Source: Heterodontus francisci (taxonomy: Eukaryota). From it: 64,000 nucleotides of DNA. The stretch covers positions 43,533,544 through 43,597,543 of the forward strand of contig NC_090404.1 in the NCBI RefSeq assembly GCF_036365525.1. The letters are read 5' to 3'. How positions within the stretch are numbered: the first letter of the stretch is position 1; each line of letters opens with the position of its first letter. Positions 2,802 through 26,801 of the stretch are shown here, piece after piece. Position numbers and translations under genes: made by a program. Under the pieces are notes generated by a model that had not been told where the DNA came from, ran no database searches, and worked only from the letters and a program-made list of their open reading frames with translations.

Positions 2802-2851
2802 TAGCTCCAGTGACTACGACGGAGCTGGCACCGTGCTGACTGTGAACTCTG
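2802..2851 (+). CDS. IgNAR: IgNAR J segment (SSSDYDGAGTVLTVNS)
   Basis: GxGTxLTV motif with D in place of the W/F of WGxG; phase-1 donor G|GTAAGT at 2852. Confidence 0.96.
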
Positions 2852-3974
2852 GTAAGTCACCTCTCTTGCTACTTTATCACTAAAATCTTTTCGATAGAGG
2901 ATTAGAAAATTCAGTGCTCTCGTTCAAAATCGCCTGAACATGAAACGCAATAGCTATAGTTTTTCAACTGACTCGGTTAGGTTAGCTCTCAGTTAATTTG
3001 GCTTAAAATTATAATATATTTTTCAAAAGCGATTTTACCCAAGAATAAATTGAACATGGATTTAATTCTGTAATTTACCTCTCATGTATGACTTTAGGTA
3101 CTGATTTGAATAGATGATGTTAGTTTTAACAGATAAAGCTGACCGAGTCTTCTGAAGTTACTTCCTTACAGAGCTGTCCCTGTATATCCTTAATGTAAAC
3201 TATTTCTGATTCATAAATTAATGCAATTCTGGGGCGAGAGAAATTTTCTCCAAGCAAGGAGTGGATGAAATTGTATAAACTGCTGTTTACGAATTCCGTG
3301 CCGCTTCTAAAAACCTTTTTGTATAAAAGAGTATCTGTTCAGTTAATATCGGCACACAACCTGCAAGTACGAATTCTGACATTTGTGACTCTGGATTAAA
3401 GGCGCACATGTCAGCGACCTAGAAAGTGACCCATTGTCGGGACGAAATTGATCTCATCCTGTCGCGCAAAACGGGGGATAGTGAATGGACAGCCTGTTAA
3501 ACAAGGCGGCAGCTATTTTCACTCATTGACTTGGAAAACGTTGCCAAGGTTTTAATTTCAAACTAAGAAAAGTATCAACGAAACTATCGAGCTTCCAAAA
3601 GAGCTTGAACTGTGAACCACAGTGGAAAGTCTGAGACCTGGTGAAAAACCAACTGCCGATTCACGATGAGCCGCTGTTGCGCTACTGATGTAGACAATTT
3701 CACCCCCGAGACTGTTATTCTGTTGGAATCCTGTGTACATGGAAACCACTTCCCTGGACACCCATGTTTCAGCTAATAGGAGGGCTCTGTGTATAAGACT
3801 ACAGTAGGTTACTGTGTAAAAAGTAGGTTCTCTTTTAAAATATGTGTTTGGAAATGAAATAAGTGGTCTCTTTATTTACTGCTTTAAGGAGAATAGTGAC
3901 GTCTTGATTTACTTACTTATTTTAAATTTGAGGAAGCAGTCTATTTATTTGGAATCTGAGTGCTCCATATTCAT

Positions 3975-4145
3975 GTTGGGCGGTGATGTAAAACGAGTGG
4001 GATCGGATCGGCCGCCCGTTCTATGCAGCGCTTGATATTAAATTCCATTGTCAACAATGGAACTGAATATCAGGCGCCGCCTTTAACAGGCGCCTGATCC
4101 GATAAAGCCTGTTCTGCGCCATCACCTGAGAAGAATTTCTAGCCC
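3975..4145. repeat. Foldback/MITE-like palindromic element in the J-C intron
   Basis: Nested inverted arms: TTCCATTG..CAATGGAA at the centre, GCGCTTGATATT/AATATCAGGCGC, ATCGGATC/GATCCGAT, GGTGATG/CATCACC. Confidence 0.65.
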
Positions 4146-6399
4146 ATTGTATTTGAAGGTGAACAGTGAGATACAGATTAGACTAGAAACATTGCTAAGG
4201 TGCAGCTTTTATCGCAGAGTTAGAACATGTCACTTATCAAAAGGAAAATCTCTCTAAGAAGGCAGGAGAGTGGATGGTGAGAAAAGCCGATTGGGTCCAT
4301 TTCACGCCTCGATACATGATGTTCCACAATGGAATTACCTCCCAAAACAACCGATACCTCCCAGTTTAAATAAAAAGCAAAAAACTGTCAGCTTTCCGAT
4401 GTGATATTCCAGGACCAACCACCTAATTCTGTCCGCTACATTAATTCAGAGGTTAATCTGTTTATTTAAAAGTGGTTGCAGAATACTGAACTTAGGAAAA
4501 TCAAGCGTTAAGCGTGGTTCCCTGAGATGAACAATGGTGATATTTCGAACTAATTTCATTCTTTGCCTCCTCGGCCTGAATACAACAAGTAAAGCAATGG
4601 TATTAATATCTGTCAATGGTATTCACATTCACACTATCATAGGCAAATCATTTTATGTGATCTTCCAACTTGCCCAATGATTAAGAATTTACTACTTGCG
4701 TTGTTGGTGTTGGTCATTTTCCAGCTAATTAATTTGTTTATTTCCACTTTGTCATTTTATTACTTGCTCTTTGATTGTTTTAAAAAGATGTATATATTTT
4801 TCAACCAGTCTTTTGTAAAAGAAAATCACATATGATTGGAGATTTATCGATTTTTCCGTGATTTTATTTTTCGCTGCCAATATTTTCTAGACTCCTGAAC
4901 GAGCCCCGCCCAACTCTGCCTATGTTGTGTGCCTTGAATATTTAAATTATATCTGCTTGTTTGTATATTTCACCCTAACACAGCAGAGCACAAAATCTCT
5001 CTGGCTCACAGCACATATTGTAAATTCCATTGGGTGCTTCGGAATGTTTTGAACATATTTGTTTTACCGATTGCCAAATCCTCGAATTCTGCCGTGATTT
5101 TACTGAACTAGTCCCAGCCTTCCACTGTCCCACAGACCAGTTTGCTCTGTGTCTCACTTTTCTTCATTCAAATGAACGGGAACATCGCACTCCCAGTACC
5201 CGCTTTTCAGTCCATTGAAACTTATGGCGTTGGGATTGTGCAAATTCCAGATCTGTGCTAGAAGTGCATAATCGTAAATCATGCCCCATAGTTAATTTCT
5301 TGGCCACCTGTAACAGACTGATGCAGAATCCATCTTTTCCCATTGATCCAGTTCTGAGGAAAGTTTCACAATTTATTTTCACTTCAACACTTCCTATAGT
5401 TCCAAAATAAGTTTTATTCACAATTTCTTGAAACCCACATTGTTAGAATTCTCAACTATAACAATATTTATTCAGCAATAGTCAAATTATAAACAGATCC
5501 CTCAAATCAGCAATAAGGGCTTTAATTTATGTCGTGACTTTAATTTAATTCGAGACACAGGGTTCAGTACTGAGGGAGGATTTAGAAGTAGGAAAAAGCG
5601 AGATGAAGACAAGTAGAAAAATTTTAAATTGGAAACATAGGGAAGTAATGAATATCAGCGAGGACAGGACTGATGGTTGATTGGAACTTGGTGCAGCTGG
5701 TGACTGTTGGGTAAACTGATGTTTCTGCATTGCAGGAAATAAAGCTGATAAAGGCATGCAGGAAGGGATCAGTTGCAAATTGTCTGTGGTAGTATTGCGG
5801 GCAGGTGATGATAGAGACTGAAGTGGGCGTTCATTGTGTTGAGAGAATAGGGGGTGAAAGGATATGAGGTTCTGGTATGAAGAGGATGTAGAGACTGTGA
5901 ACAGTCTGCTTGTGCCGAAGACAGTGGTCAGGTAGGCCGATAGAACCAGTGGTTAGGTAACAGAGTTAACGACAGGGCCAATTAACAGAGCTAAATCTAA
6001 CCTAAACAGTTTGTTTAATAGTGTGTCACATTTATATTGAGAAGAAACAATCCCAAACTAGCGTAATAAAGAGATTATCAGTTCCAACCTTGCTTTTACA
6101 TTATTCCTAGTATATTCACTGAAACGGTCAGAAGTGACATCAAATTAACACTTTGTAATTTTATAATGTTTTCCTCATTTGACAGAAGATTCTGATTTAC
6201 TGCTGATGAATGAATTAACAATTCATAAATGGCCACTCTTCTCGGTCACGTTTCTCCATATTGGTTCGTTCTGAACCATCCTGTTGTACTATGTATACCT
6301 TGCATCATTGTCTTTGTCGATAACCTGCAAGCTTGCAATGACTGAATGTTAGATGTGAGGATTCCGAAAATCTAACGATTAGTATTGGAGATTAGTTTG

Positions 6400-8430
6400 A
6401 ACAGAAGTAGATATTGGATTGTAATCAAAAATTGGTCGGTAAAACAGTAAGCATAACAGGAAGTCTTCAAAGATGGGATGTTTCGGCAATAGGGTTGGTG
6501 CATTTCCAAGAGAGGCAAGGGAAGAGCATCCAAAGATAGAGCTCCATGAAAGAGTAAAGCTGCAGTGTTAAAATGATACTAAACCGGAAGCTTATGATAA
6601 TTCAGTAGAGAAGCAAGCTGAGTATAGGAAGTGCAGGGAGAACTGAAAAAGGGAATGGAGGTGAAAAGAAAGAGTATAAGATTAACAGCTAAAATAAAAG
6701 GGAACTCAAAAGTCTTTTATAAACTTATGAATAGTAAAATGATTGTCAAATGAAGGGTGGAACTGATTAGGGACCAAAACATATATTTTTGTGGAGTTAG
6801 AGGGCTTGGCTGAGGTACTAAATAAATAATTGCCATTTATCTTTACTAAAAATGAGGATGCTGCCAATGTCATAGCAAATGAGGAGGTAGTAGGGAAAAT
6901 AGGTTAAAATAGATAAAGATGTGATAATTAAAATGTTGGCAAAGCTTCAAGTAAAAAGTCACCTGGACGGAATCCAATGCATCCTAACTTGTTACGGGAA
7001 ATAAGGGTGAGCATAGCCGAGGTTCTGGCCGCAATATTCCATTCCTCCTCAGATATTGGAATGGTCCCATAGGACTGGAGAACATAAAATGTTAGACCTT
7101 TGTCCGAAATGTGAAGAGTTATAAACCCGACGACTGCAGCCAGTCAGCCTAATGTAGGTGATTGAGAAATTTTTAGAGGCAATAATGTGAGGCAAAATAA
7201 ATTGACACTTGGGAAAATAAGGGTTAATAATTGATAGCATCTCAGATTTGTTAAAGACAAATCGTGCTTAACTAATTTGGTTCAGTTCATTGATGGTGTA
7301 TTGGAAAATGTTGATGAGGGTAGTGTGAATGATGTTGATGTAAATTGAAATTCAAAAGTTGTTTTGATAAAGTACCACATAATAGACTTGTTAACAAATT
7401 TTAAGTCCATGGGATTTTGGGGGCAGTGACTGCGTTGGTACGAGATTAGCCAAGAAACACAAAGCGGGGAGTAGTTGTATACAATTATCTTTCGAACTGA
7501 AAACTAGCATACAGTGGTGCCACCCAGCATTATTAATACTACTGCTCTTTTGGATATAAATTAATGACCTGGACTAGAGGATACAGGGCTAATTTCAAAG
7601 TTTGGAGATGACTTGAAACTTGCTATTGTAGAAAACAGTGACGAAAATATAGACTGATTGATCAAAAAGGCAGACACATGGCAGGTACAATTGAATGAAG
7701 AGACGTGTTAAGTGCTGCATTTTGGTAGAAAGAATGAGGAGAGACAATATAAACTAAATGATACAATTTTTAGGGGGTGCAGGAACGGAGAGACCTGGGT
7801 CTGCATGTACACAAATAGTTGAAGGTGGCATTTATCATCAGAGATATAGATTACAAATGCATGGAAGCTATGCTGGATCTTAAAAGTTAATGGTTAGGCC
7901 CCAACTGGAATTATGTGACCATTTTATGAACCGCACTTAAGGAAGGATATTAAACCCTTAGGAAGGGTGCAAAGGAAATTTACAACAATGGAACCAGTGA
8001 TGTTAGTTATGAGGAAGCTTTATTGAAACTGGGATTGTTCCTCTTGGAGCAGGGCATGTTAAGGCAAGATGTAATGGAGATGCTAAAATCCCGAAGTGTT
8101 TTGATAGAATAGTTCCGGACAAACTGTTTTCAGTGGCAGAGACGTCAGGAACACGTGGACACAGAGTGAAGAAAAGGAACTGGAGGAGAGATAGAGAGCT
8201 TTTTATGCATTGAGTTGTTACGATCTGAAATGCACTGCCTGAAAGCCTAGTGGAAGCTGATTCAATTGCAACTTCCAAAGGTAAATTGGATAAAAACGTA
8301 AAGGGAGAAAATTGCAGAGCTGTGGAGGAAAAGCAGGGAGGACTAATTGGACAGTTCCTTCAAAGAGCCAGGCACAGGCACTATCATGGAATAATCTCCT
8401 TCTGTGTTGTATCATTTGGTGTCTCTATGA
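6400..8430 (+). mobile_element. Old degenerate CR1 LINE (ORF2 3' part and tail)
   Basis: Frameshifted RT motifs (KSPG..., FVKDKSCLTNL, INDLD, SKFGDDLK) and a CR1-type 3' end; boundaries approximate. Confidence 0.75.
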
Positions 8431-8459
8431 TTACAGATGCTCTAAGTTTTATAATGTTG

Positions 8460-8950
8460 CTTCTTATCTGGCTGCCAATGGTGGGACGATGGAAATCAGA
8501 GATGGGCAAGAGACCAGGATTGTAGAAGGACAGAGATCGCGGAGGGTTTTAATGTTGGAGAAGGTTTCAGAGACGGTCATGAGAATTTGACCACAAGGAT
8601 GATAATTTTAAATTCGAAGTGTTGTACAACTGGAAGCAAATGTATGTCACTAAGCACAGGAGTGATGCATGAACAGGACTTGGTGCGAGTTAGTATCCAG
8701 GCAACAGAACTTTGGATCAGCTCAATTTTATGGAGGATGAAAGGTGGGGGGCCGGCTTGGAGAGATTGGAATAGGCGAGGCTGCAGATAGGCGGAGGCAG
8801 GGGCGGAGGCAGGAAATCTTACAGATGTGGACGTAAACGGCGTTTGCAGTGATGAGGATATGGGATCAGAAGTTTATCTCAGGGTCAAATCTGACATCCA
8901 GGTTAAGAACAGACTGGTTCCACCTCAGACAGTGACGGCAAAAGACTGAA
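8460..8950 (-). mobile_element. L2-like LINE fragment
   Basis: Similar to the 9395-10400 element (shared gaacaggacttggtg...agagttttggat block). Confidence 0.55.
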
Positions 8951-9020
8951 GTCAGTTCGGGAGCAAGTGAAATTTGGGAACTTTTCATGAGAACAAACTA
9001 TAACAGACATACAAATTATG

Positions 9021-9154
9021 AGAGCAAAATACTGTGGATGCTGGAAATCTGAAATAAAAACAAGAAATGCTGGAAACACTCAGCAGGTCTGGCAGCATCT
9101 GTGGAGACAGAAGCTGAGTTAACGTTTCAGGTCAGTGACTCTTCTTCGGAACCC
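9021..9154 (-). mobile_element. Penelope-like terminal repeat fragment with minimal hammerhead remnant
   Basis: Same repeat as 25673 and 28126. Minus strand reads GGTT-CCGAAGA-AGAGTCACTGACCT-GAAAC-GTT-AACT. Confidence 0.6.
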
Positions 9155-9311
9155 AGTCTTTGGCTGTTGGAGGAAACTGGAACACCCAACTGAAACCCAC
9201 ACGGTCACAGGGAGAACTTGTAAACTCCACCCAGGCAGTACCCAGAACTAAACCCAGGTCGCTGGAGCTGTGAGGCTGCGATGCTAACCATTGCGCTGCT
9301 GCGCCACCCGC
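9155..9311 (-). mobile_element. tRNA-derived SINE (HE1/V-SINE-like), partial
   Basis: Reverse complement matches the 5' part of the SINE at 61326 (tggttagca..gcagcctcacagctccag..ggtactgcctg). Confidence 0.75.
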
Positions 9312-9391
9312 TCTGTTTCAAAAACAATTCCCTGTAAAGTTAAGAAATCAAATTGCTCCATAAGCACACAAATCAAAACAGATGATTGGTA

Positions 9392-10400
9392 ACAAACAAC
9401 AACAACAACAACTTGCATTTATATAGCTCTTTTTAATGTAACAGAATGTACAAGGCACCTCACAAAAACGTTATAAACCAAAATTTGACAACGACCCACA
9501 TAAGGTGATATTACAGTGCATGGCCAAAAGCTTGGTCAAGGAGAAAGGTTTTAAGGAGTATCTGAAAGAAATAAAGAGAGGTAAAGAGGCAGAGAAAATT
9601 AGGAGGGAATTCAGAAAGGCAGCTGAAGGCATGGACACCAACTGTGGAACAATTAAGATCGGCGCTGCTCAAGAGGCCAGAATTAGATGAACGCAGATAC
9701 CTCAGAGTGTTATGGAAATGGAGGAGATTAGAGAGGTAAGGATGGGCGAGGCCATGAGGGACTTGAAGGCAGTGATGAGAATTTTCAAATCAAAGCGTTG
9801 GTTGATCGAGGCACAATGTAGGTCAGCCAGCACAATGATGGTGTGTGAACAGGACTTGGTGTGATTAAGAAACGGTCAGCAGAGTTTTGGATGACCTTAC
9901 TTTTAGGGAGAATGGGCAGGAGTGCATTTCAACGGTCGAGACTATAAGGTAACATAGGCATGAAGGACGTTTTCAGCAGCAGAAGAGCTGAGGCAGGGGC
10001 GAAGTCATGTCACGTTATGGAGGTGGAAATAGGCGGTTTTAGTGATGGAGAGTACAGATATGTGGTCAGAAGCTGATCTACCAGTCAAATATAACAACAA
10101 AGTGGCAAACAGCTTGGTTTACCTTCAGACGGTTGCAAGGGAGAGAAATGAAGTCAGCAGCGAGGGAATGGACTTTACAGCAGGAACTGAAGACAATGGC
10201 TTTTGTCTTCCCAATATTTAGTTGGAGTAAATTTCTGCTTATTTACTATTGGATGTTGAACTAACAGTCTGACAACTTAGAGACAGTGAAGGAGTCAAGA
10301 GAAGTGGTGGTGAGGGGGAGCTGGGTATCGTTAGCACACATGTAAAAACTATTGTGTCGCTGAAGGGCTGCATGTAGATAAGAAATACGAGGAGGAATGG
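9392..10400 (-). mobile_element. L2-like LINE 3' fragment
   Basis: Tail (ACA)n-CTTGCATTTATATAGC, the reverse complement of an L2-type GCTATATAAATGCAAG(TTG)n end, followed by degenerate ORF2. Confidence 0.65.
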
Positions 10401-10606
10401 GGGAAATAATAAAGGATATACATTCAATATCTGACCATCACTGCACCCACATCAAGGGTGAGGATAATTTTGCCCCAGCGCATTGATCATTCTTTATTCA
10501 GAAATTAACAACTTATAAAAATAAATGAACGTTCATTCAATATCTAAACTCCTTTCTCCCAACACGTCCACTGTGATATCCCTACATTTCTTCCCAATTT
10601 CAATAG

Positions 10607-10657
10607 CCACAGCCACACCAACAGAAAATTGCAATGTGATAAACACAGAGGCATTGG
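10607..10657 (+). pseudogene. Candidate hinge mini-exon (ATATPTENCNVINTEAL) with mutated splice donor
   Basis: Polypyrimidine tract plus AG at 10606; 51 nt, phase 1-1, open in the J/C1 frame; followed by ATAAGT instead of GTAAGT. Confidence 0.5.
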
Positions 10658-11034
10658 ATAAGTCGCAATGGCCCCTGGAAACCTCCTTTATCAGACTGGG
10701 GCCTTGGACTTGTCCTATCCCATAATATGTTTTCACGAACAAGCAATCCCTGTATAACACAACTCATAGAACAGCAATATATTGTGATCTTGAATGTAAA
10801 TGGATCAGTGACATTTCAGAAGCAGTATTTTTTTTTTTTAAAGTAATCTCTTATATGCCATCTATTTGTATTAAACTTTGCTCAGGCAGTGCTTGCGAAC
10901 CAATCATATTATCTTAAGAATCAATAGCTGGCCTCTAATTTTGAAAATATTTCACAGCAATACTAAGGAAAATAAAACAAATGACAATTAACCAGAGACC
11001 GTGATTTCAATAAATAAATGAAGATTTGAATTTC

Positions 11035-11205
11035 TATCGGGTCTTTCACGTGCTCAGTACGTCCAAAGGCTTTTTGAAGAGTAGTCACTATTGGAATGTA
11101 TGAAACGTGCACAGCAAGATCCCACAAATAGCAATGTGATAATGACGAGATCATTAGTTTTAGGTGTTGGGTGAAGGATAAATGATGGCCGGGACATGAG
11201 GGAAA
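11035..11205 (-). mobile_element. Deu-domain SINE remnant (AmnSINE1/SacSINE1-like)
   Basis: ttttgaag..tagtcact..gcacagcaagatcccacaaa.agcaatgtgataatgac block recognised from memory of this family. Confidence 0.55.
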
Positions 11206-11254
11206 TGGTCTTTTCATATTTATAGAAGGGAGTAAAATATCCTTGTAATTCTAG

Positions 11255-18549: not shown

Positions 18550-18755
18550 TTGCGGACATCATCCAGGGAAGCCAGGAGATGAAAGCAACAAGACCAGAAG
18601 GGCGCTGCATCTTATTAGCTAAACAGAAACAATCTGAGAAAATTCCTAACCTACTCCAGTAAGTAGAATTATTTTACATCTCTTGGAGTATGTTGTTGTT
18701 GTTACCCTTGAATTCAACATGACAGCTTGAAATAACCATTCCCTCTTCTTTCAAG

Positions 18756-19474: not shown

Positions 19475-19857
19475 TTGGTGAAATGCATCCTCCTAAAGTC
19501 TACGTTCTACTTCCATCAGCGGAAGAGATAGACACTGAGCAGACGGCTACTCTGGTGTGTCTGGTCACTGGATTTTATCCTGCTGAGATTTACATCGCTT
19601 GGATGGCCAATGACACCCTTTTGGATTCAGGTTCTCCTAGCCAAGCAGAGATCGAGAAGAGAAATGATTCCAGCTCCATTGCCAGCAGATTGAAACTCAC
19701 TGCGGTGGAGTGGAACAGCGGCACCACTTACACCTGTTTAGTGGGACACCCGTCCCTCCAAAGGGATTTACGCAGAAGCATAAATAAATCTTATGGTAAA
19801 CCTACTTCAGTTAATGTTTCACTTGTCCTATCTGACAGTGTTAAATCATGTACATAA
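19475..19857 (+). CDS. IgNAR: IgNAR constant exon C5 plus secretory tail (internal donor after 19795 for the TM form)
   Basis: VGEMHPPKVYVLLPS..LVC..YTCLVGHPSL..NKSY|GKPTSVNVSLVLSDSVKSCT*. IgM-like tailpiece with NVS sequon and penultimate Cys; G|GTAAAC internal donor. Confidence 0.96.
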
Positions 19858-26643: not shown

Positions 26644-26801
26644 AAACTCCTCAAATAATGGAAAATCCAGAAGACCTCGAGGTAGAGGAAGAAAGATTAG
26701 AAAATTTCGATGAGGATGCAAACTCTGCTGCAACAGTGATCGCTTTTGTCATCCTGTTTATCCTCAGTGTATTGTACAGCACATTTGCAACCGTCCTTAA
26801 G
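26644..26801 (+). CDS. IgNAR: IgNAR transmembrane exon TM1
   Basis: ctag| acceptor in phase 1; acidic spacer ETPQIMENPEDLEVEEERLENFDEDANS then TM ATVIAFVILFILSVLYSTFATVLK with the conserved YS motif; phase-0 donor AAG|GTAATA. Confidence 0.93.

Follow-up and report, generated by a model that had tools for sequence, protein, structure and literature searches.

The IgNAR cluster and the exon-like element in its J-C1 intron

We analysed a window of 64,000 nt on the forward strand of Heterodontus francisci and found that it contains one complete IgNAR cluster, with one V, D segments, one J with RSS, five C exons, secretory and transmembrane ends and a C1 of the IgNAR type, all on the + strand. The leader exon (1005-1047) is followed by a V segment without the CDR1 Cys (1188-1475, RSS at 1476), three D segments with RSS-like flanks (1731-2421; D1 near 1731, D2 near 2003, D3 ending at 2421) and a J segment (2802-2851) with a phase-1 donor (TCTG/GTAAGT at 2851). 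The constant part consists of C1 (11255-11569, phase-1 start), C2 (13932-14234), C3 (14310-14627), C4 (18756-19076), C5 with the secretory tail (19475-19857) and a first transmembrane exon, TM1 (26644-26801). This layout corresponds to that of the textbook shark IgNAR cluster (L-V-D-D-D-J-C1 to C5-Sec/TM), including the C3-C4 linker Cys, which is intact in the first residues of C4 (D-C-H). C1 shares 96% identity with the H. francisci IgNAR UTD43068.1, in which J joins C1 directly (TVNS-GPAPP), as in the window cluster. The C4 acceptor (18753-18755) reads AAG here and CAG in another cluster of the same genome (L006); the C3-C4 joint was found in transcript contigs of all four runs described below, which pool clusters. 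Beyond 27 kb the window contains long ORFs that we take to be fragments of reverse-transcriptase retrotransposons.

The J-C1 intron of this cluster spans 8,403 nt and contains an exon-like element of 51 nt (10607-10657, + strand), located 597 nt upstream of C1. It is preceded by an acceptor-like site (10585-10606) composed of a pyrimidine tract and an AG at 10605-10606, and followed by a dead donor, ATAAGT (10658-10663). The tract has 14 pyrimidines in 18 positions, compared with 10-15 of 18 for the six real acceptors of the cluster. Since J ends and C1 starts in phase 1, the 51 stop-free nt would insert ATATPTENCNVINTEAL in frame. A short open phase 1-1 frame between domain exons is what a hinge exon should have, and this anatomy was found exactly as originally predicted. 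The element lies in non-repetitive intron DNA (10410-11000) that is present only in the seven IgNAR clusters of the genome, and a dispersed repeat copy, presumably a SINE, occupies 11002-11205 (+ strand) between the element and C1.

Two further features of this intron were observed. A CACTGTG heptamer at 10569-10575 lies directly 5' of the acceptor-like site and is kept in clusters L003-L006, and not in L007; no nonamer is present at RSS spacing, and the heptamer is probably there by chance. A second in-frame exon look-alike of 36 nt, with a live donor (GTAAAT), is located at 4984-5019; it has no match among the joints listed in the transcript contigs (15 of 194).

Comparison of the seven IgNAR clusters

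Searches with DNA, with C1 protein and with the element's peptide each found seven IgNAR clusters, all on one contig, and only seven IgNAR C1 loci in the genome. V, J and C1 are intact in six clusters, which were separately assembled and are spread over ~10 Mb. The seventh, L007, near 45.68 Mb, is a pseudo-cluster with a truncated V, a C1 frameshifted by a 4-nt deletion and a truncated C4; the 20 kb retrieved on its upstream side contained nothing matching J, and the 20 kb on its downstream side nothing matching C2, C3 or C5. The window cluster and a near-identical twin near 40.06 Mb (L038) have a V that lacks the CDR1 Cys (HILFGTKWF), and the V of the four other intact clusters has this Cys. 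By V type, the intact clusters of the genome thus divide into 2 + 4, and the pseudo-cluster makes the seventh. The same contig also carries, at 3.6-13.8 Mb, approximately 48 further Ig C-type exons with 43-49% identity to IgNAR C1, in accord with reports that elasmobranch IgH isotypes are linked.

None of the seven clusters has a GT donor at the element. The A at 10658 is present in six of them, namely all the intact ones, and therefore predates their expansion (~5% intronic divergence). The donor position reads ATAAGT in L001-L005, ATAATT in L006 and GAAAGT in L007. A single donor mutation, as had been proposed, would describe five of the seven copies; the other two carry further disabling changes. 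L006, an intact cluster, has a 2-nt insertion within the 51-mer, and L007 has a 2-nt insertion, TG in place of the acceptor AG, and GAC at the Cys codon. The element's frame is thus open in five clusters and broken in L006 and L007.

Sequence divergence between L001 and L007 gave no signal of constraint on the element. Differences amounted to 9-10 of 51 positions in the element (depending on gap placement), 93 of 678 in the flanking intron and 21 of 311 in C1. C1 is constrained relative to the intron (P 0.001) and the element is more diverged than C1 (P 0.006-0.02), whereas the element and its flanking intron did not differ (P 0.29-0.41). Its changes comprise two synonymous ones at ~9 sites and seven non-synonymous ones at ~33 sites, i.e., dN is approximately equal to dS. 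The 51 nt are identical among L001 and L003-L005; at 4.5% flanking divergence this has P ~0.10, and it is therefore no evidence of constraint. Purifying selection and conservation of frame, expected of a functional hinge exon, were thus not observed among the paralogues.

It had also been suggested that the Cys of the element could provide an inter-chain disulfide. This found no support: the codon is GAC in L007, and 41 of 80 peptides from chance look-alikes (see below) contain a Cys. A second disulfide before C1 is unsupported because the oldest copy (L007) lacks the Cys. The inter-chain disulfide of IgNAR described in the accessible text of two papers is that of the C3-C4 linker (PMC4622739, PMC8151367).

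Transcripts, proteins and chance expectation

Transcripts were represented by four runs (X1-X4) of the same organism, from one sample, available as assembled contigs whose RNA type was guessed. The J-C1 joint (2850 to 11254) occurred in 8, 6, 0 and 1 contigs of X1, X2, X3 and X4, respectively, among the joints listed (15 of 194), and was accompanied by other expected IgNAR joints; direct splicing of J to C1, part of the original prediction, is thereby seen in RNA-type contigs. Over 10470-10830, covered by four contigs each in X1 and X2, neither a joint nor a loose end was present at either border of the element. One contig in each of these two runs passes unspliced from 10594 to ~10825 with no difference at 10658; it carries variants of the L003-L005 type and comes from sister clusters, not from the window cluster. 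Since contigs can lose rare isoforms, these data exclude a major element-bearing isoform, but not a trace one. Two runs from a second organism (X5, X7) had no contig on 10470-10830, a result that speaks neither for nor against the element there.

Proteins gave the same picture. J and C1 are directly joined, with no insert, in all ten retrieved IgNAR proteins that contain both; they represent five species, namely H. francisci (one), Triakis scyllium (four) and the skate Okamejei kenojei (three), together with one gene model each from Cetorhinus maximus and Chiloscyllium punctatum, in a set without full-length nurse shark or dogfish IgNAR. Among seven IgW-type proteins, six show the direct join and in the seventh, nurse shark AAT02199.1, 6 residues of the J end are repeated ahead of C1, a repeat unlike the element. 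Within a larger set of 155 Ig-like proteins, 29 of 33 J motifs are located 24-30 residues from the first C1 Cys (four were not scored), and the best match of ATATPTENCNVINTEAL had an E value of 0.82. Thus, inclusion in mRNA or protein was observed neither in the joints of X1, X2 and X4 nor in any of the ten IgNAR proteins. The original prediction was to be given up if there was neither a homologous peptide in IgNAR or IgW transcripts nor conservation of the 51 nt with their splice sites in paralogous J-C introns. No element-like peptide occurs in the 10 IgNAR and 7 IgW proteins retrieved, yet the paralogues do have the 51 nt, conserved no better than neutral intron.

Homology searches outside these clusters were negative. 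DNA and peptide searches of the genome with the element returned matches only in the seven IgNAR clusters; comparison with 22 other Ig C-exon loci and the rest of the window gave a best E value of 0.027 and matches of no more than 27 nt. There was no translated match among stored proteins, and a metagenome scan found no relative. A repeat origin, suggested by a local match of 27 of 36 positions to the repeat near 11110, was rejected: when 23 genomic copies of the repeat were combined in a profile, the element scored E 0.12 and 0 bits, whereas the true copy scored E 1e-43 or better. The open literature, searched for peptide fragments and for IgNAR hinge and extra-exon topics, contained no description of the element, most subscription papers being outside this scope. 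Nothing on an exon between J and C1 was present in the accessible parts of PMC8692893, PMC5743654, PMC5192425 and PMC12907318, and no dead exon-like unit in the J-C1 intron is mentioned in the portions of the shark IgNAR literature available to us.

How often such a pattern arises by chance was estimated in two ways. We counted in-frame mini-exons of 24-90 nt with a dead donor in 150 dinucleotide-shuffled versions of the 8,403-nt intron. When a G at -1 was required, the probability of at least one hit was 0.007, 0.027 and 0.12 at pyrimidine cut-offs of 14, 12 and 10, respectively; without this requirement, the values were 0.033, 0.15 and 0.44. All thresholds were set after the site was known, and those giving 0.007 are tailored to the element. 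Other DNA of the same genome, 390,850 strand-bases in all, yielded 80 distinct look-alikes, 25 of which had a dead donor; per 8.4 kb, dead-donor hits numbered 0.02-0.13 if G was required at -1 and 0.09-0.54 if it was not. At each threshold applied, the J-C1 intron itself gave the element as its sole in-frame hit with a dead donor. Its pattern is uncommon, not extraordinary, and exceeds chance modestly.

The peptide was compared with those of the 80 background look-alikes, using linker and position scores that were picked after the fact. Its share of small and polar linker residues was reached by five of them, and only two were both as rich in linker residues and as poor in F, W, Y and L. A share of S, T and P at the element's level (at least 5 of 16) was found in 24. 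The composition is linker-like, but with a single Pro and with a Cys that is missing in L007 and common by chance.

Origin and meaning of the element

Given that it has no GT donor, is skipped in the contigs and proteins examined and diverges like intron, the element is non-functional today. The reading that we prefer, to which we would assign an even chance, is that it is the relic, decaying neutrally, of an old linker exon that could optionally be spliced in between J and C1. An ancestral cluster would have possessed an AG, the 51 nt and GTAAGT, and would have spliced in a short spacer rich in Thr and Pro. The lineage of the six intact clusters would then have lost the donor by a G to A change at +1 before it multiplied, and pseudo-cluster L007 would have lost +2, the acceptor and the frame separately. 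U1 cannot define an exon without GT at +1/+2, so that the upstream AG would be bypassed, the C1 acceptor used and the element left without function.

Several observations favour such a relic. L007 keeps a G at +1, and only 33 of 477 intronic positions with A in L001 (6.9%) have G in L007. The pyrimidine content of the acceptor is on a par with that of the best real acceptors in the cluster, the peptide has a linker-like composition (reached by 5 of 80 in the background), and the site lies near C1 in cluster-specific, non-repeat DNA. In addition, the exon numbering of nurse shark GcIgNAR1 in the available text of PMC11641339 implies an exon between V and C1. Against these stand the small number of donor states, only AT and GA with no outgroup, for which ancestors GT, AT, GA and AA each require two changes; thus the G of L007 keeps the proposed ancestral GTAAGT possible, but other ancestors need as many changes. 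Adjacent-pair changes also occur elsewhere within the L007 element, there is no signal of past constraint, proteins of five species including a skate are insert-free, and the background rises to 0.54 per 8.4 kb.

The same observations can be read as those of a chance pseudo-exon, i.e., old intron DNA with a fortuitous AG, an open 51-nt frame and a near-donor that never was an exon, a serious possibility that we place somewhat below an even chance. It accounts for the intron-level divergence with dN close to dS, a frame broken in two of seven copies (one in an intact cluster), the insert-free IgNAR proteins (10 of 10), the lack of a similar peptide in the seven IgW proteins and a best peptide match of only E 0.82 among the 155 Ig-like proteins. 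It also agrees with the 0.09-0.54 dead-donor hits per 8.4 kb, with chance peptides that often contain Cys (41 of 80) or as much S, T and P (24 of 80), and with another in-frame look-alike, having a live GT, at 4984 in the same intron. However, it requires several coincidences to occur jointly: the G at +1 in L007 (~0.07), the linker-like composition (5 of 80), nearness to C1 and, with P 0.007-0.03 in the shuffles, the combination of a strong acceptor and a G at -1. Low-level use of the element in a minor linker-bearing IgNAR, via a non-canonical or a downstream cryptic donor, seems improbable. Six clusters retain an intact acceptor, a GT (GTCCTA) that is in frame, albeit poor, occurs 105 nt past the acceptor, and rare variants can drop out of assembled contigs; but in X1 and X2 no contig is joined or breaks off at 10607 or 10657, each of these runs has one contig that reads through the two borders unspliced, and a TAG interrupts the 105-nt frame in L003-L005. 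To our knowledge, an AT donor with an AG acceptor is not a recognised splice pair. The original prediction itself favoured a working hinge exon switched off in this cluster or allele, with a base-call error at 10658 as the alternative. In the window cluster the element is indeed intact except at +1, yet the same A stands in all six intact, separately assembled clusters over ~10 Mb, contigs of two runs cross 10658 with no difference listed, and no cluster among the seven IgNAR C1 loci has a GT donor. Both versions are refuted for this assembly, and we give them almost no credence.

A more specific form of the relic reading, which we consider doubtful but worth stating, is that a once-optional J-C1 linker exon of IgNAR is still spliced in GcIgNAR1 as exon 3 and was lost twice in the horn shark lineage, by GT to AT in the six intact clusters and GT to GA in the pseudo-cluster. 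In the part of Tang et al. available to us (PMC11641339), the V of GcIgNAR1 is assigned to exon 2 and C1-C5 to exons 4-8, which implies a transcribed exon 3 between V and C1, and GcIgNAR2 has no intervening exon. That text implies exon 3 by its numbering, without discussion. Like the element, this exon lies between V and C1, and it occurs in one IgNAR cluster and not in another. In contrast to the horn shark element, exon 3 was observed in RNA-seq (PMC11641339, as available); the two resemble each other in position and may be unrelated. An offset of 35 or 16 residues, derived from the Cys numbering in the same text (246 versus 211; 475 versus 459), was set aside because these figures conflict with a fixed spacing from C1 to the linker (247 in UTD43068.1) and because V-region frames differ.

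Mammalian IgG and IgD have separately encoded hinge exons. In the accessible text of the respective papers, IgNAR is described as lacking a canonical hinge (PMC4622739, PMC8151367) and its V/C1 region as flexible and protease-sensitive (PMC4279169); separate hinge exons are described for Xenopus IgF (PMC4279169) and batoid UrIg2, sharks being without the latter (PMC12227049). The IgF and UrIg2 hinges resemble the element in being short phase 1-1 exons for a flexible spacer, placed between Ig-domain exons, but, in the same available texts, they are spliced and described as proline-rich or as lying between C domains, whereas the element encodes one Pro, lies between J and C1 and has neither a donor nor constraint. 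Pseudoexons and camelid CH1, which is skipped through a donor mutation (PMC8151367, as far as its text is available), provide a different parallel: each is an exon-like intronic unit skipped in the absence of a donor, as is the element. However, camelid CH1 encodes an entire Ig domain for which spliced homologues are evident; our searches found none for the element.

The element can at best be called a fossil exon, one that is fixed in every cluster, with no working donor, no inclusion in the transcripts and proteins retrieved and no signal of constraint. If it is a chance pseudo-exon, it matters little, and with either origin the horn shark IgNAR protein is unchanged. If it is a fossil linker exon, a spacer exon was both gained and lost in the heavy-chain-only antibodies of elasmobranchs, in parallel with batoid UrIg2 and camelid antibodies, each in its own way. 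Homology to GcIgNAR1 exon 3, if true, would make the case for a fossil exon strongest, and if the exon was lost twice, at least some sharks would have come to their hinge-less IgNAR secondarily. A relic, if that is what the element is, would also hint at a natural spacer between VNAR and C1 in other sharks.
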